This document shows, piece by piece, positions 9,237 to 43,381 of a stretch of 64,000 nucleotides of DNA. The stretch comes from an uncultured Acidimicrobiales bacterium. GTDB lineage: Bacteria; Actinomycetota; Acidimicrobiia; Acidimicrobiales; RAAP-2. How positions within the stretch are numbered: position 1 is the stretch's first letter; each line of letters starts with the position of its first letter. Made by a program: the position numbers and the translations under genes. The stretch lies in assembly GCA_963703145.1 (NCBI GenBank), contig OY969793.1:1883151-1947150 (forward strand), written 5' to 3'. The notes beneath the pieces are model-generated. The model was not told where the DNA came from, did not search any database, and was given only the letters and a program-made list of their open reading frames with translations.

Positions 9237-10417
9237 GCCATCAGCTGGCGGGGCTGGCTGAAGGCCAGCACGGCCCGCAACCGATCGCCCCGACGGTAGA
9301 GCGCCACGAACTTGCTCTCCTCGGTAGAGCCGCCGACCACCACCACGTCGTCGTCGGGGCCCGGCAGGCCGATGACCTGGATCTTGGTGGCGTACTGGTC
9401 CGACCAGAAGAACGGGACTGGGTCGTAGGGCTTGGCCGCGGCGGATCCCGCCAACAGGTTGCGGGCCGCCGCCGCCCCTCCCTCGGCGGCGTTGGTCCAG
9501 TGCTCGACCCGGAGCTGCTCGTCGAGGCCTGGATGGGTCCAACGGGCGACGTCCCCGGCCGCCACCACCCGGTCACCAGCGAAGAGGGTCTCACCGCACA
9601 CCACGCCATTGTCCAGGGACAGGCTCGATCCTTCCAACCAACCCACGGTAGGTGTCACCCCGATGCCGACCACGACCACGTCGGCGTCCACGTAGGTACC
9701 GTCCGACAAGTGGACGGCCACGGCTTCCCCGCCGTGGGTCTCGGTGGACAGGCGGTCCACGCCGACCCCGGTGACCAACGTGACCCCGTGGGACCGGTGG
9801 AGCAACGCACAGGCCGCACCCATCTCGTCACCGAGCACCCGGCCGAGGGGTGTCGGCAGGGCCTCCACCACCGTCACCCGGGCCCCGAGGGCGTGGCAGG
9901 TGGCAGCTACCTCCGACCCGATGAACCCGGCGCCGATGACCACCACCTTGGCCCCGTCTCCGGCGCTGGCCAGGTCGCTGCGGATCCCCAGGCAGTCGTC
10001 CAATGTGCGCAGGCACCGCACCGTGGGCAGGTCCTCAGTGCCCGGCAGGCGCCGGGCCGATGTGCCGGTGGCGACGATCAGCCCGTCGTAGGCCAACGAC
10101 GTCCCGTCGCTCAGGCCCACTGTCCGGACGTCGGTGTCGAGCGAGACGGCCTGGCGGCCCAGACGGAACTCGAGGCCCAAGGTGTCGAGCTTGTCGGGGG
10201 CGTGGTGATGGATACGGGCCACGTCCCAGGTGCCGGCCAGGAGCTGCTTGGACAGTGGCGGTCGGTCGTAGGGTGCGTGCAGCTCGTCCCCGACGATGAT
10301 GACGGGGCCGTCGTGGCCTTCGTGGCGGATCTCCTCGGCTGCTCGCAGTCCGGCCAGTGAGGCGCCGACCACGACGACGGTGGCATCGGGCGACAGGGGT
10401 TCGCTCATGGTCGGCAT
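9173..10417 (-). CDS. FAD/NAD(P)-dependent oxidoreductase (ferredoxin/rubredoxin reductase-like)
   Basis: Two dinucleotide folds, VVVVGASLAGLRAAEE and VVVIGAGFIGSEVAA, plus YDRPPLSK. The 3' end overlaps the convergent transglutaminase gene by 64 nt. Confidence 0.8.
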   Translation of the reverse strand: MPTMSEPLSPDATVVVVGASLAGLRAAEEIRHEGHDGPVIIVGDELHAPYDRPPLSKQLLAGTWDVARIHHHAPDKLDTLGLEFRLGRQAVSLDTDVRTVGLSDGTSLAYDGLIVATGTSARRLPGTEDLPTVRCLRTLDDCLGIRSDLASAGDGAKVVVIGAGFIGSEVAATCHALGARVTVVEALPTPLGRVLGDEMGAACALLHRSHGVTLVTGVGVDRLSTETHGGEAVAVHLSDGTYVDADVVVVGIGVTPTVGWLEGSSLSLDNGVVCGETLFAGDRVVAAGDVARWTHPGLDEQLRVEHWTNAAEGGAAAARNLLAGSAAAKPYDPVPFFWSDQYATKIQVIGLPGPDDDVVVVGGSTEESKFVALYRRGDRLRAVLAFSQPRQLMAYRPLLAAGASFDEALAVSRS

Positions 10418-10466
10418 CGTAGGGGCAACACCGGGACCATCGATGCTGCTCCGAAGTAGGGACGGC

Positions 10467-11222
10467 TCAACGCCCGAACATGGTCATCCACTGCTCGGGC
10501 GTGGACAGGCGGAAGACGTAATTGTGGTCCCGGGTGTGGCCCATGGTGGCCGACGGCTCTGGCGAGTACAGGTGCCCGGGGAACAGGACGGTGTCGTCGG
10601 GGACGCGGGCCAGCCGGGTGGTCAGCGACTCGTACATGGCCTCAGGATCGCCACCGGGAAGGTCGGTGCGGCCGCACCCGTCGAGGAACAACGTGTCACC
10701 CGCGATCAGACGACTGTCGAGCAAGAAGCACTGGCTGCCCGGCGTGTGGCCCGGCGTGTGCACCAGGGTGACCGGGATTCCGCCCACCTCGACCACGTCC
10801 CCGCTGGCGTGGGTGACCAGATCGACCTCACCGACGCCCGTGGAGCGCACCACCCAGGGGGCTTCGTCGGCCTGGATGTGGACCGGGACCGGAGCCACCT
10901 CGAGCAGCCGCGCGATCCCTTCGATGCCGAACCCCATCATGTCGCCCCCCACGTGGTCGGGGTGATAGTGGGTGGCCAGGGCCCCGGTGCACGTCATGCC
11001 GTCGGACGCCAGGATGGCCAAGAGCTCGTCGATGCCGTAGGCGGGGTCAATGATGACCGCCTCACCCGTCTGTCGGTCGCCGACCAGATAGACGAAGTTG
11101 ACCATCTGGCGGGCCACCTGGTCGTCGACGGCGAAGTCCCGGCCGGCCAGCAGCTGGCGGAAGTAGAGGCGGTCGGTCGGGGACGGGGCCACAGGGCCCA
11201 CGGCGGCATCGGTCACCGCCAC
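10467..11222 (-). CDS. MBL-fold metallo-hydrolase (glyoxalase II-like)
   Basis: THYHPDHVGG (HxHxDH) metal motif and HTPGHTPGS, in a 251-aa ORF. Confidence 0.8.
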   Translation of the reverse strand: MAVTDAAVGPVAPSPTDRLYFRQLLAGRDFAVDDQVARQMVNFVYLVGDRQTGEAVIIDPAYGIDELLAILASDGMTCTGALATHYHPDHVGGDMMGFGIEGIARLLEVAPVPVHIQADEAPWVVRSTGVGEVDLVTHASGDVVEVGGIPVTLVHTPGHTPGSQCFLLDSRLIAGDTLFLDGCGRTDLPGGDPEAMYESLTTRLARVPDDTVLFPGHLYSPEPSATMGHTRDHNYVFRLSTPEQWMTMFGR

Positions 11223-11373
11223 ACCTTATGGGCGCAGCCCGCAGATCGTGGGCACGGGGCACCCCGTTGTCATGTCCACGACTCGCCCGCATGGGTCGGG
11301 AGTACCATCGCTCCGGTACTAAGGGCCCGCTCCGACGGGGGCGGGCCCGCGGCGACCAGCGAAGCAGAGGGTA

Positions 11374-35973: not shown

Positions 35974-36693
35974 TCAGTGCTTGGGCTGCCACCACCGGCG
36001 TCTGGCCGGGGGGTTCTCGATGGGCACCCAGGGCGGGGTCGGCTTCCGGGGGGCGCCCGGGGAGATCTTGGGGGCCGACCGTGGGGCGGGTTCGGGATAG
36101 GGCTGTGCCACGGGCGGCACAGGGTCTTTGGCGCGCTCGCGCTGGAGGCTGGAGGGATCCGCACCTCCGGTGTCGGTTGCCGAGCCCTTGGAGCCGGCGC
36201 CCGTGGTGGCGGGTTGATCCGGACGTGCCGGTGCGACCGATGCTCCAGAGGTTGGCCGGACATCACGTTCGCCCCGCTCCGGGTCGGTACCGCCGCCCTC
36301 GTCGATCGTGGCACCGGCCATCAGGGTCCGCAGGGCCAGTTCCTGGGCCTCGATGACACGCTCCCGCTCGGCAGCCCGGGCCTCGGCCACCTCGGCTCGC
36401 CGGAGGGCGTCGGCCAGTGCGCGGCGCAGAACGTCCTCGGCGGCCGACCGCTCGTTGCCCTCGTCGACCACCTCGCCCGACCCCAGCTTGCCCAGGACCA
36501 GGCCAGCACCCAGCAGATCGTCGACCGGGATCAGCCACGGACCAGTCCCCGGGCCTTCCCGTCCGGGTTCCCGGCGCGCGTGGGGGAAGTCACCGCTGTC
36601 TAGCCGCCGCCGGATGGTGCGCCGGTCCACCCCGGCCGCCTGGGCGGCCTCGGTGACGGTGAGCATGAGCCGGTCGTCTTGTTCCGCGGTCAT
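35974..36693 (-). CDS. Helix-turn-helix (excisionase/MerR-like) DNA-binding protein with coiled-coil and Pro-rich tail
   Basis: LMLTVTEAAQAAGVDRRTIRRRLDSGDFPHARR. Start taken at ATG 36693. Confidence 0.55.
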   Translation of the reverse strand: MTAEQDDRLMLTVTEAAQAAGVDRRTIRRRLDSGDFPHARREPGREGPGTGPWLIPVDDLLGAGLVLGKLGSGEVVDEGNERSAAEDVLRRALADALRRAEVAEARAAERERVIEAQELALRTLMAGATIDEGGGTDPERGERDVRPTSGASVAPARPDQPATTGAGSKGSATDTGGADPSSLQRERAKDPVPPVAQPYPEPAPRSAPKISPGAPRKPTPPWVPIENPPARRRWWQPKH

Positions 36694-36847
36694 CGAATCG
36701 TTGGCCTCATTCCCTGCCCTGCTTGGTGCCTGCCCCACTGCATGCTTGCCCTCGTATCCGCTCGTGGCCGATGCCACACCTTCGGCGATATACCCAGCGT
36801 GTCATAGGACGTCGCCGGCGGTAGGTCGCCCTACCCTGCGAGGCCGG

Positions 36848-38562: not shown

Positions 38563-39003
38563 CTAGATGGCGCTGAGCACGACCTCGATGTTGCCGCGGG
38601 TGGCGTTGCTGTAGGGACACACCTCGTGCGCTCCCTTGATCAGCGTCTCAGTGGTGGCTGCGTCTACCTCGGGGATATGGACGTCCAGCGCCACCGCCAA
38701 GCCGAACGCACCGCCCTCGATGGTCCCGATGGCAACCTTGGCCGTGACCGTGGAGCCGTCGACGCTCACCTTGTTCCGTCGGGCCACGACCTGGAGGGCA
38801 CTCTGGAAGCAGGCCGCGTACCCCGCGGCGAACAGCTCCTCGGGGTTGGTTGCCCCACCCGGGCCACCCATCGACACCGGCGGTCGGAGGTCCACGTCGA
38901 GCAGGCCATCCGCGCTGCGCACGTGGCCTTCGCGCCCACCGATGGCGGTGGCCTCGGCGGTGTACAGGGGCTTGATCAGTGCGGTCACCATGGTCGTCTC
39001 CAT
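38563..39003 (-). CDS. ohr: Organic hydroperoxide resistance protein (OsmC/Ohr family)
   Basis: PLYTAEATAIGGREGHVRS...GATNPEELFAAGYAACFQSAL and a second Cys in HEVCPYSNA. Confidence 0.85.
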   Translation of the reverse strand: METTMVTALIKPLYTAEATAIGGREGHVRSADGLLDVDLRPPVSMGGPGGATNPEELFAAGYAACFQSALQVVARRNKVSVDGSTVTAKVAIGTIEGGAFGLAVALDVHIPEVDAATTETLIKGAHEVCPYSNATRGNIEVVLSAI

Positions 39004-39073
39004 TCCTCGGGCCCAAACGCTCCCGGACTCACCAGGTGCAACCAGCGTCCGGCCCCGATTCTTCCCGCACGGG

Positions 39074-39619
39074 TCATTGGTTGGTCTTGACCGCGGCCCG
39101 CAACTGGCTCGGCGAGCTGATCGACGTGCCCAGTGTCACCGTCACCGACGACGTCACCGCGGCCGGCTCGACCTGGAGGTAGACCGACCCGCTGAGTGGG
39201 GGCACGGTGGTCGAGGTCACCGTTGTCGTCGACGTCTTGGCGAACGTCCCGCCGACCTGGGTGCCTGCCGCTCCACTGCACTTGTTGGACACCCACGCCA
39301 CCGCGCAGGTGAACAGGGTGAAGGTCGGTGAGCCGGATGCCGGTGTGGACACGGTCACCTTGTAGCTGATGGCCGACAAGGCGATCGTCCCGGTGTTGGT
39401 GACCGTCGAGGTCTGGTTCGTCGTGGTGGTGAACGTCATCGAGGTGGTGCTGGCCGTGGCCGTCCACTTCCCGCTGGTGACCGACTCGGACCCGGCGACC
39501 GAGGCTTTGGCCACCCCGGCGGCGGCGGCACCGGAGGGGAGCCCGGACGCGCCGAGCAGCAGGACTGCCGCCATGACGGCAGTCCTTCGCACGACGAGTT
39601 GCCGCTGCCCCTGTCTCAC
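39074..39619 (-). CDS. Secreted Thr/Ser-rich protein with SipW-type signal region, distant TasA-like
   Basis: GTG 39619 lies 11 nt after the upstream stop, with a GGGAGAG RBS. Signal VRQGQRQLVVRRTAVMAAVLLLGASG, followed by VAGSESVTSGKW, which parallels the GSESVSSGTL of the neighbouring genes. Ends in TNQ like them. Confidence 0.65.
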   Translation of the reverse strand: MRQGQRQLVVRRTAVMAAVLLLGASGLPSGAAAAGVAKASVAGSESVTSGKWTATASTTSMTFTTTTNQTSTVTNTGTIALSAISYKVTVSTPASGSPTFTLFTCAVAWVSNKCSGAAGTQVGGTFAKTSTTTVTSTTVPPLSGSVYLQVEPAAVTSSVTVTLGTSISSPSQLRAAVKTNQ

Positions 39620-39630
39620 GCACTCTCCCG

Positions 39631-40305
39631 CTACTGGTTGGTCGCTGCTCCGAGTCGCTGCTGCTCGGTGAAGGTGTAGGTCAAGGTGGTCGACAGTCCC
39701 TGGATGGTCGGGCTCGGGAGGACTCCGTTGGTGGACACCTCGTTGCCCACTAGGCCCAGGCTGACCTGGATGTGGGCCGCCTGTCCGGTGGCGGCGGCCA
39801 GCGCCGGGACGTTGGACAGGGCCACGGCGGTGCCGGCCGTGTTCATGGTGTTGATCTGCCGGGTGGCCAGGATCGGGGTGCTCGTCCCCGAGCACACGCC
39901 GGTGGCCAGGGTCCAGGCGACCGAGCACTGGGTGGCGGTGACGGTCAGGCCCTCACCCGCGGCGGTGCCGTTGGTCAGGGCGTTAGCCGGAGTGCCCGCC
40001 ACCCACAGGGTCATACCGGCCGCCGAGGCCAGCGTGCCGGTGTTGTTCAGGTTGACGTAGACGTTGTCCGTGTCGCCGGGAGCCATCTTGGATGCGAAGT
40101 TGCTGAACCCGGCACCGCCGGAGTCGGCCGTCAGGGTCAGATTGAGGGTCCCCGAGGAGACGGACTCCGAGCCGGTGGCCACCCCGGACAGTCCGGCGTA
40201 GACGCCGGCTGTGGTCAGGAGGCCGATGGAGGCGGCGAACAGGCCGGCCAGAACGGCGCGTCCGTGTCGTCGGTGCTTCGTGCGGGAGTGGGCGTGCTTG
40301 CTCAA
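39631..40305 (-). CDS. TasA/camelysin (M73)-like secreted protein, copy 1
   Basis: TTG start with a GGAG RBS. Basic N-region plus hydrophobic core. SSGTLNLTL and MAPGDTDNVYVNLNNTGTL parallel the B. subtilis TasA motifs ASGTLDL / NLKPGD...NNGSL. Confidence 0.75.
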   Translation of the reverse strand: MSKHAHSRTKHRRHGRAVLAGLFAASIGLLTTAGVYAGLSGVATGSESVSSGTLNLTLTADSGGAGFSNFASKMAPGDTDNVYVNLNNTGTLASAAGMTLWVAGTPANALTNGTAAGEGLTVTATQCSVAWTLATGVCSGTSTPILATRQINTMNTAGTAVALSNVPALAAATGQAAHIQVSLGLVGNEVSTNGVLPSPTIQGLSTTLTYTFTEQQRLGAATNQ

Positions 40306-40503
40306 CGTTCATGCTCCAAAAGCGGGTCGTGACCGGATCGATGCGATCCGAGGGCAGGGTCCCGGCCGGGAGGTCGGGGGTCAGGGTCCCCGCCGTGCGG
40401 GGCCCGGGTGGGGTCGACTGGTGTGGCGTGCCACGGCCAGCAGGACGACCGGAGTACCCACTCCAGCCGTCCTGCCCGCTCGATGGCCTGCCCCTCCGAT
40501 CGA

Positions 40504-41178
40504 CTACTGGTTGGTGGCCGCTCCAACTCGCTGCTGCTCGGTGAAGGTGTAGGCGAGCGTGGTCGACAGGTTCTGGATCGTCGGGCTCGGTGCCACACCG
40601 TTGGTCGACACCTCGGTGCCCACCAGGCCCAGGCTGACCTGGATGTGGGCGACCTGTCCGGTGGCGGCGGCCAGCGCCGGCACATTGGACAGGGCCACGG
40701 CGGTGCCGGCCGTGTTCATAGTGCTGATCTGAGTGGAGGCCAGGATTGGGGTGGTCGTGCCCGAGCACACGCCGGTGGCCAGGGTCCAGGCCACCGAGCA
40801 CTGGGTGGCGGTGACCGTGAGTCCCTCACCCGCGGCAGTGCCGTTGGTCAGGGCGTTGGCCGGGGTGCCGGCCACCCACAGGGTCATACCGGCCGCTGAG
40901 GCCAGCGTGCCGGTGTTGTTCAGGTTGACGTAGACGTTGTCGGTGTCCCCCGGGGCCATCTTGCCGGTGAAGTTGCTGAAGCCGGCGCCGCCGGAGTCGG
41001 CGCTGAGGGTCAGGTTCAGGGTCCCAGAGGTAACCGCTTCGGAACCGGTGGCCACCCCAGACAGTCCGGCGTAGACGCCGGCTGTGGTCAGGAGGCCGAT
41101 GGAGGCAGCGAACAGGCCGGCCACGAGGGCACGTCCGTGTCGTCTCTGCTTGGGTTGGGTGTGGCTGTGCTTGCTCAT
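40504..41178 (-). CDS. TasA/camelysin (M73)-like secreted protein, copy 2
   Basis: ATG 41178 with an AAGGAG RBS. 224 aa, with about 22 substitutions relative to copy 1 by manual alignment. Confidence 0.75.
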   Translation of the reverse strand: MSKHSHTQPKQRRHGRALVAGLFAASIGLLTTAGVYAGLSGVATGSEAVTSGTLNLTLSADSGGAGFSNFTGKMAPGDTDNVYVNLNNTGTLASAAGMTLWVAGTPANALTNGTAAGEGLTVTATQCSVAWTLATGVCSGTTTPILASTQISTMNTAGTAVALSNVPALAAATGQVAHIQVSLGLVGTEVSTNGVAPSPTIQNLSTTLAYTFTEQQRVGAATNQ

Positions 41179-41231
41179 GACTGCTCCTTGCAATGGATAT
41201 GGATGGTGATGGGTGATGCTGACGTGTTGCG

Positions 41232-41795
41232 TTACTGCGGTACTGGTGTTGCGACGCGCGCGCCTGGGACCTGTCGGCCCGGGCGCAGGATCCACCGGGT
41301 GCCGGCCACCGCCGCCAGCAGGCCCCCAAAGAGGATCAGGCCCAACTGCACCGGACCCTGCATGCCAACGAGGAGCCGCCCGGCCCACGGGATGGCCAGC
41401 ACGACTTCAGGCACGGAGGACGACGTCAACTTGGCGTGCCACGGGTCGGGGCCGGTATTGGCATCCCCCTTGGTCGTGATGACCGGGTGGTCGGACGGCC
41501 CGGCGACCGTGGTGATCCGGTGGGCGAACTCGGCGTGCTCGCCGGGCGGGGTGAACACCACGATCATCCCGGGATGCACGGCATGGACGGAGACCTCCTT
41601 GGTCACGAGGAGGGCACCCGGTCCGTAGGTGGGGCGCATGCTCCCGGTCAGCACCGGTCGGAATCCCAGATGGAGGGCGATGGTGACCAGCGCCAGACCA
41701 CAGCAAACACCGGTGGCGGCCAACAGCCCGATCGTGGACAGCGACCAGAACGCGGCACCCTTTCGGGTGTCGGACGATGGTGAAGAAACTGGCAC
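41232..41795 (-). CDS. Signal peptidase I, SipW/archaeal-ER type (S26B)
   Basis: TM helix then LTGSMRPTYGPGALLV (catalytic Ser box) and ...FAHRITTV...ITTKGDANTGPDPW. The start is uncertain: GTG 41795 has a GAAGGTGAGGGG RBS, and the ORF is open to 41963. Confidence 0.75.
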   Translation of the reverse strand: MPVSSPSSDTRKGAAFWSLSTIGLLAATGVCCGLALVTIALHLGFRPVLTGSMRPTYGPGALLVTKEVSVHAVHPGMIVVFTPPGEHAEFAHRITTVAGPSDHPVITTKGDANTGPDPWHAKLTSSSVPEVVLAIPWAGRLLVGMQGPVQLGLILFGGLLAAVAGTRWILRPGRQVPGARVATPVPQ

Positions 41796-41848
41796 CCCCT
41801 CACCTTCGGCGCGGTCCAGGGCCACCTTGAGAACTTTTGACAACCTCT

Positions 41849-41871
41849 GTTGCGCAACGTTCCTTGCGCAA
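41849..41871. promoter_or_regulatory. Two TTGCGCAA palindromes in the divergent sipW/regulator intergenic region (candidate operator)
   Basis: GTTGCGCAAC (41849-41858) and TTGCGCAA (41864-41871), centres 14 bp apart. A TTGACA hexamer lies at 41837-41842. Confidence 0.4.
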
Positions 41872-41938
41872 CACGGATTGCCGTCGTGAGACGGTCGGGA
41901 AACACGTGTTGCCGAAGCGGTGAGCGTAGGCTCGGGCC

Positions 41939-42331
41939 GTGGACCAGCCCCGGGCGATCGCATTGCAGGAGATCGAAGAATTGCTCGATTCCGCGAAGCG
42001 GCTCCGCGCCGACCTACGGGAGAAAGAGGTCGCCTACCGGCGGATGTCCCGCCAACTGGCCAATGGGACGCCGATCGGAACGGCGATGGACAATCTGGGC
42101 ACCAACGTGGCCCGCCAGCAGCTCACCGACACGTTGGACGCCTTCGAGCACAGCCGGCACCGGACCCGCCTGGCCATCACGGCCGCTGCCCTCGAGGAGG
42201 GCATGACCATCGGGGAGATCGGCCGGGCCTGGGGATTCTCACGACAGCTTGCCGCCCGGTACGCCAAGGAGGCCCGGGCCATGGCCGCCTCCCGGCGGCC
42301 GACCCGAGGGAAGCGACAGGCGGCCGGTTGA
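41939..42331 (+). CDS. Small HTH regulator (sigma-70 region-4-like C-terminus), divergent from the sipW operon
   Basis: 130 aa. C-terminal GMTIGEIGRAWGFSRQLAARYAKEA is HTH-like. Confidence 0.55.
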   Translation: MDQPRAIALQEIEELLDSAKRLRADLREKEVAYRRMSRQLANGTPIGTAMDNLGTNVARQQLTDTLDAFEHSRHRTRLAITAAALEEGMTIGEIGRAWGFSRQLAARYAKEARAMAASRRPTRGKRQAAG

Positions 42332-42448
42332 GGGGCGAAGGCCGGCCGATATCCTGGATCCGTCGGGTTGAGCATCCACCTTCCGCCGGGTGGCTGCTCC
42401 CCGGCGACCTCATGCTCATCTGCTCCGACGCCGGGGTCGACTAGTCCG

Positions 42449-43381
42449 ATGCGCGCCGTACGGAGCACTGATGCGGGAATCCGCGTCGTCCAGGCCACCG
42501 ACCCCGATCCTCACGGGGTGCGGGTCACGGTGACCAGCTCGGGAATCTGCGGATCCGATCTCCACCTGGCCTCGTTCGGGCCTTCGGCCATCACGCTCGG
42601 CCACGAGTTCTGCGGCCGGCTCGACGACGGCACTCCGGTGGCCGTCCTACCCGCCGTGTCATGCGGGAGCTGTGACCGATGCCGGTCCGGCCAGGACCAG
42701 CAGTGCGCCGAAGCCCTCGGCACCATGTACGGCATCAGTCGGGATGGTGGGCTGGCCGACGAGGTCTGGGTCAACCCCCGGTGCGCCAAGGTGGTGGAGG
42801 ACCCCCTGGCCTTCGAGCATGCCAATCTGGCCGAACCGATGGCCGTGGCCCTCCATGGCGTCAACCGCTCCGGGCTCGTAGCAGGGGCCCGTGCGCTGGT
42901 CATTGGGGCGGGGCCCATCGGCCTGTGCACCATCGCCGCCGCCCGGAGCCTGGGCGCGTCCGTCGACCTCTTGGCCCACCGGCCCCGTCGCCTGGAAGCC
43001 GGCGAGCAGCTGGGGGCCAGCACATCGGTCGGCAACGCCTACGACGTCGTGCTGGAGGCGGCCGGCACCCAGAGCTCCATGGACCGGGCCATCGAGCTGG
43101 TCCGGCCGGGGGGCACCGTGGCCATCCTCGGGAACTTCTGGGATCCCGTCTCCATCGGACTGGCCTTCCAGATGAAAGAGGCCACGTTGATCCCGTCGTT
43201 CACCTACGGCCATCATCACGGCGTCTCCGAGTTCGAAGAAGCGGTCCGGTTGCTCAGCGCCGTACCCGAACTGCCCGACGCTGTGGTCACCCACCACTTC
43301 GGCCTCGACGACGCCACCGAGGCCTTCCGCGTGTCGGGCGATCGGGCCACCGATGCCATCAAGGTCGTCGTGCACCCCTGA
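42449..43381 (+). CDS. Zinc-dependent alcohol dehydrogenase (MDR family)
   Basis: GICGSDLH, CGSCDRCRSG structural-zinc loop, and VIGAGPIGL Rossmann motif. Confidence 0.85.
   Translation: MRAVRSTDAGIRVVQATDPDPHGVRVTVTSSGICGSDLHLASFGPSAITLGHEFCGRLDDGTPVAVLPAVSCGSCDRCRSGQDQQCAEALGTMYGISRDGGLADEVWVNPRCAKVVEDPLAFEHANLAEPMAVALHGVNRSGLVAGARALVIGAGPIGLCTIAAARSLGASVDLLAHRPRRLEAGEQLGASTSVGNAYDVVLEAAGTQSSMDRAIELVRPGGTVAILGNFWDPVSIGLAFQMKEATLIPSFTYGHHHGVSEFEEAVRLLSAVPELPDAVVTHHFGLDDATEAFRVSGDRATDAIKVVVHP

Follow-up and report, generated by a model that had tools for sequence, protein, structure and literature searches.

A conserved TasA-like gene cassette as a candidate extracellular fibre system of uncultured soil Acidimicrobiia

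We examined a 64-kb stretch of DNA (hereafter the window; contig OY969793.1, positions 1,883,151 to 1,947,150, G+C 61-74%) from an uncultured Acidimicrobiales bacterium, in which a preliminary description, made from the letters alone, had proposed an operon combining a SipW-type signal peptidase with secreted proteins resembling TasA, the fibre subunit of Bacillus. On the minus strand, positions 39074-41963 hold four co-directional genes, coding in order for a putative signal peptidase (41232-41795, 187 amino acids), two paralogues of 224 amino acids, here called the major subunits (copy 1 at 40504-41178, with an ATG start; copy 2 at 39631-40305, with a TTG start; each preceded by a GGAG ribosome-binding site), and a third protein of 181 amino acids (39074-39619, GTG start). 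As had been described, the third gene begins exactly 11 nt after the preceding stop, the TAG of copy 2, and a small helix-turn-helix (HTH) gene (41939-42331, plus strand, 130 amino acids), a candidate regulator, is divergent from the cassette; the whole four-gene layout was recovered with its divergent neighbour. The locus also includes a hairpin after each major-subunit gene and, in the spacer separating the peptidase gene from its HTH neighbour, a tandem palindrome.

The longest open reading frame (ORF) of the peptidase gene spans 41232-41963, and the GTG at 41795, lying behind a AAGGTGAGG ribosome-binding site, is its likely start. The translation contains LTGSMRPTYGPG, carries hydrophobic segments at both its N and C termini, and scored 52.8 bits against TIGR02228, the model of archaeal/endoplasmic reticulum (ER)-type signal peptidase I (curated cut-off 51.85), and 24.5 bits against the Pfam family Peptidase_S26 (PF10502, cut-off 22.9). 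Its best sequence matches in the PDB were human SEC11A and SEC11C, and the alignment with SEC11A (entry 7p2p) paired LTGSMRP with LSGSMEP, AHRI with VHRV and TKGDANTGPD with TKGDNNAVDD, retaining the catalytic Ser (GSM), His (HR) and Asp (TKGDxN..D) motifs. Because the TIGR02228 cut-off was reached and the SEC11A motifs aligned, the protein is assigned as a Ser-His-Asp S26B enzyme of the SipW/Sec11 type, which agrees with the SipW/ER-type assignment initially made. The Bacillus SipW equivalog model NF046067 returned 33.5 bits for a cut-off of 190, and the enzyme is thus of the same type as SipW without being its orthologue.

The two copies of the major subunit are identical at 202 of 224 positions, with no gaps; the 22 substitutions, exactly the number previously counted by hand for two secreted proteins about 90% identical, are distributed between the signal peptide (7) and the mature part (15). 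The sequence motifs that had been put forward as shared hallmarks were recovered in part only. Following its signal peptide, copy 1 continues as GLSGVATGSEAVTSGTLNL and reads GSEAVTSG and TSGTLNL, instead of the GSESV[ST]SG and SSGTLNL that had been announced, while the shorter patterns SGTL.L and PGD..N.G.L do align with TasA chains. Against the Pfam family PF12389 (Peptidase_M73), to which TasA and camelysin belong, copy 2 scored 23.0 bits, above the gathering score of 22.5, over model positions 6-194 of 196. A scan of 1.84 billion representatives returned 250 relatives of the major protein at an expectation value (E) of 0.001 or less, from which family an alignment of 111 diverse members was built. 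Two cysteines are invariant in this alignment, and its nearly invariant columns include A37, L39, G52, L54, P76, D78, N88, G90, W131 and Q216. At E<=0.01, Peptidase_M73 was matched by 91 of the 111 members, with a best value of 1.4e-11; the NCBIfam TasA model was matched, weakly, by 36 of them. Searched against the PDB, the profile of this alignment retrieved the TasA chains 8aur and 5of1 at ~3e-5, with SGTL.L and PGD..N.G.L aligned, and weakly found the archaeal AbpX chains 9sj2 and 9rhp (E 0.02). The similarity to TasA/camelysin, for which profile searches had been proposed, was therefore borne out by both the score of copy 2 and the matches of its family.

Structure prediction pointed in the same direction. 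An AlphaFold2 model of copy 2 built on the 111-member alignment (predicted local distance difference test, pLDDT, 85.2; predicted template modelling score, pTM, 0.75) had a single PDB match at E<=0.001 by Foldseek, namely chain 8aur_A of the TasA fibre (E 1.8e-6, probability 1.0, template modelling (TM) score 0.55), and the match to 5of1 had a probability of 0.99. The monomer modelling suggested in the preliminary description thus led to a TasA fibre chain as the best match, and the predicted fold of the major subunit is a TasA-type jelly-roll beta-sandwich. Both copies are relatives within the TasA superfamily, and not orthologues of Bacillus subtilis TasA. When the alignment with TasA is extended without gaps, the conserved A37 falls on the cleavage-site Ala of TasA, and L39, V42 and V49 stand opposite TasA F29, I32 and F39, which are contact residues of the donor strand in the fibre (PMC9674648). 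The segment that follows the presumed cleavage site may therefore map onto the TasA donor strand, and across the family alignment this region is conserved with its hydrophobic pattern, A37 and L39 being nearly invariant. The mature major subunits are unusual in composition, with ~5% charged residues (one or two Lys/Arg and seven Asp/Glu in 187 amino acids) and a positive grand average of hydropathicity (GRAVY); Ser and Thr together make up 26-40% of the mature cassette proteins.

The third protein matched no Pfam or NCBIfam family, and BLASTP of the major against the third protein returned solely the 8-residue GSESVxSG match. Comparison at the profile level was far more informative: hhalign aligned the major family with a profile of 95 third-protein orthologues at 97.3% probability (E 2e-11), and still at 94.4% (E 8.5e-8) once the signal peptide and donor-strand segment had been removed from both profiles, whereas controls in which the third-protein profile was reversed or column-shuffled gave at most 0.9%. 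Given this strong match and the negative controls, the third protein is a shortened, divergent TasA-like paralogue of the major subunit. The aligned core comprises N.TG.., the cysteine pair C-x-V-A-W...C-S-G and an (H/Y)LQV strand, and the third protein also carries a Q-x-R-x4-TNQ tail like that of the major subunit; neither the PGD loop nor the E..NG..P..IQG segment is present in it. Its mature part is basic (isoelectric point 9.6) and contains 40% Ser+Thr, and AlphaFold2 predicted for its core a confident beta-sandwich. It is probably a minor subunit, for which a role like that of Bacillus TapA is possible by analogy, although no TapA homology was found for it in Pfam or NCBIfam. In the public annotation, this protein (P0121, 166 amino acids) seems to begin at the ATG of 39574-39576, which is located in the loop of the second hairpin of the locus. 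The longer form of 181 amino acids is favoured, because the orthologues measure 178-181 amino acids and an upstream GTG stands behind a GGGAGAG ribosome-binding site.

Scanning one genome per species, we recovered 49 related loci, all from Acidimicrobiales or Acidimicrobiaceae metagenome-assembled genomes except one labelled Actinomycetota only, with isolate names referring mostly to Danish soils, peat, palsa and permafrost. The peptidase gene lies directly upstream of the major gene in ~41 of these 49 loci, the third gene directly downstream of it in ~43, and a homologue of the HTH gene adjoins the cassette, usually in divergent orientation, in ~20; the three genes thus keep their order in some 41-43 loci. 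The order peptidase-major-minor is furthermore maintained in more distant cassettes, at 58% (L050), 49% (L054) and 41% (L052) identity, as well as in a complete 5.4-Mb NCBI genome (GCA_036021035.1, L055, 40% identity). The cassette is thus real and widely conserved in soil Acidimicrobiia. Two genomes display a split system, with both loci on one contig (L012 with L017, and L022 with L025), where the peptidase accompanies a major gene but no minor gene at one locus, and the other combines a major with a minor gene in the absence of the peptidase. In L050, a 593-amino-acid protein with SpaA/SdrD_B-type domains, which occur in Gram-positive pilins and adhesins, is encoded ~3 kb downstream of the cassette (9572-11353).

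Tandem duplication of the major gene is confined, among the 49 loci, to the window and its three closest relatives (L001, L002 and L004). The ratio of nonsynonymous to synonymous divergence (dN/dS) between the two copies of the window is 0.20, and both copies are under purifying selection. Across these four loci, the synonymous divergence (dS) between tandem copies within a genome is 0.00-0.33, against 0.1-0.6 between genomes, yet the leader peptides of the copies retain either a copy-1 or a copy-2 signature. The combination of low within-genome divergence and copy-specific leaders suggests an old duplication later homogenised by gene conversion.

All three putative substrates of the peptidase end with the tripeptide TNQ (AATNQ in copies 1 and 2, KTNQ in the third protein), a shared terminus that had been pointed out from the window alone and whose conservation in orthologues is now documented. 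TNQ terminates 115 of 120 homologues of the major protein (>=72% identical) and 47 of the ~56 major-gene ORFs of the 49 loci. Among third-protein orthologues it is found in 25 of 44, the remainder being mostly near variants such as TSQ, TNH or TDQ. This ending is not a product of chance. In the wider major family (30-60% identity), proteins end mostly with T-N-S, and a QR pair lies exactly 7 residues before the C-terminus in 84 of the 111 aligned members, with the consensus QR-[AT]-[AG]-[TV]-T-T-N-[SQAG]; the penultimate residue of these 84 sequences is Asn in 50, Ser and Thr being also common. The minor subunits of distant cassettes end similarly, with RQIRAAKTTNA, RQIRAAVTTNA and RQIRQAITTNS. 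Since a tail of the same length recurs in the wider family and in distant minor subunits, TNQ is best read as the local form of a fixed-length tail, Q-x-R-x4-T-N-[S/Q/A], common to major and minor subunits. The preliminary description had been unable to assign it to a known sorting signal, and it fits none of the layouts compared (LPXTG/sortase, PEP-CTERM and GlyGly-CTERM): TNQ does not look like a sortase-type signal, because the protein stops with this tripeptide and neither a transmembrane helix nor a basic tail comes after it. In addition, the conserved cassette contains no sortase or exosortase gene.

A second conserved element was identified at the RNA level. In most loci, a stable hairpin of 11-18 bp with a 4-nt loop is located ~30-45 nt past the stop of the major gene, where the best folding energy over 50 nt averages -36.4 kcal/mol, compared with -25.0 (standard deviation 3.9) for random segments of the same loci. 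In the window, hairpin 1 (40439-40476, minus strand, 38 nt) lies in the 198-nt spacer 3' of copy 1, consists of a perfect 17-bp stem with a 4-nt loop and folds at -31.7 kcal/mol. Hairpin 2 (39561-39586, minus strand), with an 11-bp core folding at -19.9 kcal/mol (-25.2 when extended), is situated 33 nt into the ORF of the minor subunit, in the part coding for its signal peptide, which is also where the hairpin of single-copy loci is found. A gapless alignment of 33 orthologous hairpins has 98.8% of its cells paired, a figure inflated by the selection of sequences for having a stem. That selection does not inflate the pattern of compensation at orthologous columns, where both sides have changed in a compensatory manner in 11 of 13 pairs; several of the paired columns are synonymous third codon positions. 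None of 500 shuffles reached the observed level, and slid registers were 28-67% paired. Non-coding versions of different sequence follow copy 1 in the window, L001, L002 and L004 and occur in L007. This links the hairpin with the major gene's end and not with the signal peptide sometimes encoded there. A hairpin of 16-17 bp was also present at the equivalent position in two of the four distant cassettes (L050 and L052). Rfam had no match in 38800-42500. In pap and other chaperone-usher fimbrial operons, a stable stem-loop lies directly after the gene of the abundant subunit and before those of rare subunits; the hairpins described here would occupy an analogous position, 3' of the putative abundant-subunit gene and ahead of the rare-subunit gene, with the difference that they usually fall inside the coding region of the next gene. 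They may act as terminator-like or transcript-stabilising elements through which the major subunit would be kept in large excess over the minor one.

The spacer that separates the HTH and peptidase genes holds two 8-bp palindromes arranged in tandem as TTGCGCAA-N6-TTGCGCAA (41850-41871), an operator-like layout beside which a TTGACA hexamer occurs on the plus strand (41837-41842); a scan for sigma-70 promoters gave no match. These are the only two copies of the palindrome in the window, where 0.23 would be expected by chance, and none of 100 shuffles reached two. Over the 49 loci, 29 exact copies were counted in the 18 kb upstream of the cassette, a total that takes in two loci lacking the peptidase gene as well as an HTH gene, against 2 in the other 697 kb, i.e. 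a density ~450-fold that found elsewhere in the loci. At least one copy lies upstream of the cassette in 22 of the 49 loci. The tandem palindrome is probably an operator, and we treat it as a candidate control site. The HTH protein itself gave weak family matches (HTH_23 at E 0.006 and an anti-sigma model at 0.003) and no others.

From this set of features we infer that the cassette probably builds an extracellular fibre of the TasA type, made of strand-exchanged subunits processed by the SipW-like peptidase. The three substrates would be exported with long, basic-headed signal peptides, and the S26B peptidase, product of the first gene of the operon, would cut them, probably behind the conserved G-V-Y-A. 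This cut would free the N-terminal segment of the major subunit, GLSGVATGSESV.., as a donor strand, which would enter the beta-sandwich of a neighbouring subunit and generate a head-to-tail chain as in Bacillus TasA, with both 90%-identical genes supplying the major subunit. The basic Thr/Ser-rich paralogue may serve as a low-abundance minor subunit acting as nucleator, cap or cell-surface anchor, the job of TapA in Bacillus. The Q-x-R-x4-T-N-Q tail present on both subunit types could be part of the inter-subunit interface beside the last strand, a reading suggested by the C-terminal residues of TasA, which take on an ordered form within the fibre, where they make up an interface between subunits (PMC9674648). 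The hairpin after each major gene would probably end or stabilise most transcripts, leading to far more major than minor subunit, and control is likely exerted at the tandem palindrome of the divergent promoter region, perhaps by the neighbouring HTH protein. We are less sure of each of the roles thus proposed for minor subunit, tail, hairpin and palindrome than of the fibre mechanism.

Several observations weigh against this interpretation or some of its parts. Polymerisation is deduced here from a monomer prediction and from sequence comparison, and the sequence similarity to TasA is weak: copy 1 scored 18.8 bits against PF12389, below the gathering score, and the TasA equivalog NF046066, whose cut-off is 450, returned 11.4 and 12.2 bits for the copies. 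While the mature proteins contain ~5% charged residues, B. subtilis TasA contains roughly 29%, and surface chemistry and bundling may differ a lot from those of TasA. For the third protein, Foldseek returned generic jelly-roll or carbohydrate-binding-module matches only (best E 3.7e-3) and no link to TasA, and its N-terminal segment resembles that of the major subunit around SESVTSG only, not over the whole donor strand. Unlike the fimbrial stem-loops, the hairpins have no U-tract, and a simple terminator scan called none at their positions, its sole match being inside the peptidase gene, at chance level. Finally, about half of the palindrome-bearing loci are without a detectable HTH neighbour.

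These reservations give some room to a scenario in which the TasA-like proteins are secreted and cut but never polymerise, forming instead a monomeric or loosely packed surface coat or an adhesin, for instance a nearly uncharged, hydroxyl-rich layer. The composition of the mature proteins (low charge, positive GRAVY, abundant Ser and Thr) would suit such a coat, TasA itself is stable as a monomer (PMC9674648), and assembly is putative in the present case. We nevertheless hold this scenario to be unlikely, since the characterised members of the superfamily, namely TasA, AbpA, AbpX, cannulae, threads and Tafi, all polymerise by donor-strand complementation according to the cited literature, since the donor-strand region is retained here with its hydrophobic pattern and near-invariant A37 and L39, and since a conserved minor paralogue with a dedicated peptidase is typical of filament loci (2026 preprint). 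More remote still is the possibility that the paralogues are secreted metalloproteases of the camelysin type (M73), a reading that draws on the name of the matching Pfam family (Peptidase_M73, camelysin metallo-endopeptidase) and to which we give almost no credence: the mature sequence has no metal-binding motif, with a single His and 7 acidic residues, and the structural match is a TasA fibre subunit and not a protease. The absence of the metal-binding motif led us to reject it.

The fixed tail raises a distinct question, which bears on how subunits would be joined or displayed. T-N-Q could be a reactive or recognised signal, serving either a covalent cross-link between subunits (from Asn to the new N-terminal amine) or attachment to the envelope. 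In favour of this view, a tail of constant length with an N-x ending is common to major and minor subunits, and in one thread filament belonging to the TasA superfamily an Asn seems to be cross-linked to the N-terminal amine (PMC9715654). It seems very improbable in light of the wider family, in which only 50 of 84 sequences have Asn at the penultimate position and Ser and Thr are common; neither a transmembrane segment nor a basic tail follows the motif as in sortase/exosortase-type signals, no transpeptidase gene is found within the conserved cassette and the mature protein has no conserved Lys. A covalent role is nonetheless kept among the readings, because in Sulfolobus threads an isopeptide from Asn57 to the N-terminal amine has been proposed (PMC9715654). 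Within the TasA-type fibre that we favour, the tail might even constitute a second connector between subunits, of a kind not described so far, either a C-terminal latch gripping the next subunit or an Asn isopeptide to the SipW-cut N-terminus, with the subunit ratio set by an RNA element located in the minor gene; we regard this extended model as a rather improbable one, which, if true, would provide uncultured soil Acidimicrobiia with a fibre that is chemically locked and almost uncharged.

The closest point of comparison is the tapA-sipW-tasA operon for biofilm fibres of B. subtilis, where a dedicated S26B signal peptidase is likewise encoded beside the fibre subunit and an accessory protein would be processed by the same route in both systems. 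The major subunit is predicted to share with TasA the jelly-roll fold, the motifs SGTL.L, PGD, N.G.L and, near the end, F.F...Q, as well as an equal spacing from the presumed cleavage site to SGTL. By contrast, the gene order is peptidase-major-minor, no TapA homologue is present, and a shortened TasA-like paralogue is the accessory protein. The subunit stops 7 residues past the conserved QR, with T-N-Q, whereas the TasA tail extends over ~30 residues, and it differs from TasA in its invariant Cys pair and low charge (~5% as opposed to about 29%). The host, a high-GC Acidimicrobiia bacterium, is also unlike Bacillus.

A similar layout is seen in the AbpX, AbpA and Tafi loci, which occur in archaea and in some bacteria and combine a signal peptidase I with a TasA-like major subunit, with minor subunits that are also TasA-like and occasionally with a transcription factor; a 2026 preprint describes the same cassette logic for AbpX and related loci. 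AbpX is however very acidic and assembles with calcium, while the proteins studied here are nearly uncharged, and the AbpX-linked peptidase has ten transmembrane helices, as opposed to the two-segment SipW/Sec11 layout predicted for the present enzyme. Of the genes called in the related cassettes, none was a DUF5305 accessory gene. In actinobacteria, TIGR04089 (exp_by_SipW_III) groups exported proteins with an alternate-type signal peptide, linked to a SipW-like peptidase by computation only. A search with SipW-cognate signal-peptide models, envisaged in the preliminary description, did not support a link to this family: TIGR04089 matched no protein of the window at E<=10 and one of the 111 aligned family members, at 0.003, and for this reason the TasA-like proteins form a separate family. 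The statement that an actinobacterial equivalent is uncharacterised still stands, as our literature search found no paper on a TasA/SipW system of Acidimicrobiia or other actinobacteria, and the 2026 preprint mentions only that the bacterial TasA sequence cluster includes Actinomycetota, none of them characterised there.

In its predicted fold, motifs, dedicated peptidase and minor TasA-like subunit, the cassette shows what defines a filament locus of the TasA superfamily. It is set apart by its scarcity of charged residues, its invariant Cys pair, a C-terminal tail of fixed length and the hairpin. Rather than a new class of extracellular-fibre system, it represents an uncharacterised member of one already known, and as such will not surprise specialists. 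Acidimicrobiia are abundant in soil, peat and permafrost and almost never cultured, and to our knowledge nothing is known of the way in which they form a matrix or adhere to surfaces. Present in dozens of species-level genomes, the cassette provides a concrete candidate for an extracellular fibre of Acidimicrobiia. It would widen the TasA superfamily with a near-uncharged clade, with a minor paralogue built into the cassette where Bacillus has TapA, and with a C-terminal tail that is conserved, while its hairpin and palindrome offer handles on the regulation of the operon. The general picture of TasA-like systems is left unchanged; what is gained is an entry point to the matrix biology of uncultured Acidimicrobiia and a test case for the role of the tail.

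In the window, the genes flanking the cassette code for OsmC, Mac acetyltransferase, glyoxalase, SRPBCC, zinc alcohol dehydrogenase, histidine phosphatase and NUDIX proteins, and look unrelated to it. No tRNA gene was found in the 64 kb. Further away, positions ~14000-36000 have a lower G+C content (0.61-0.68, versus 0.69-0.74 on both sides), and half of the large ORFs tested in this stretch are without a Pfam match. Just past it, a protein of the HTH_17 type (excisionase/MerR-like) is encoded at 35974-36777; the low-G+C stretch may be an acquired island.

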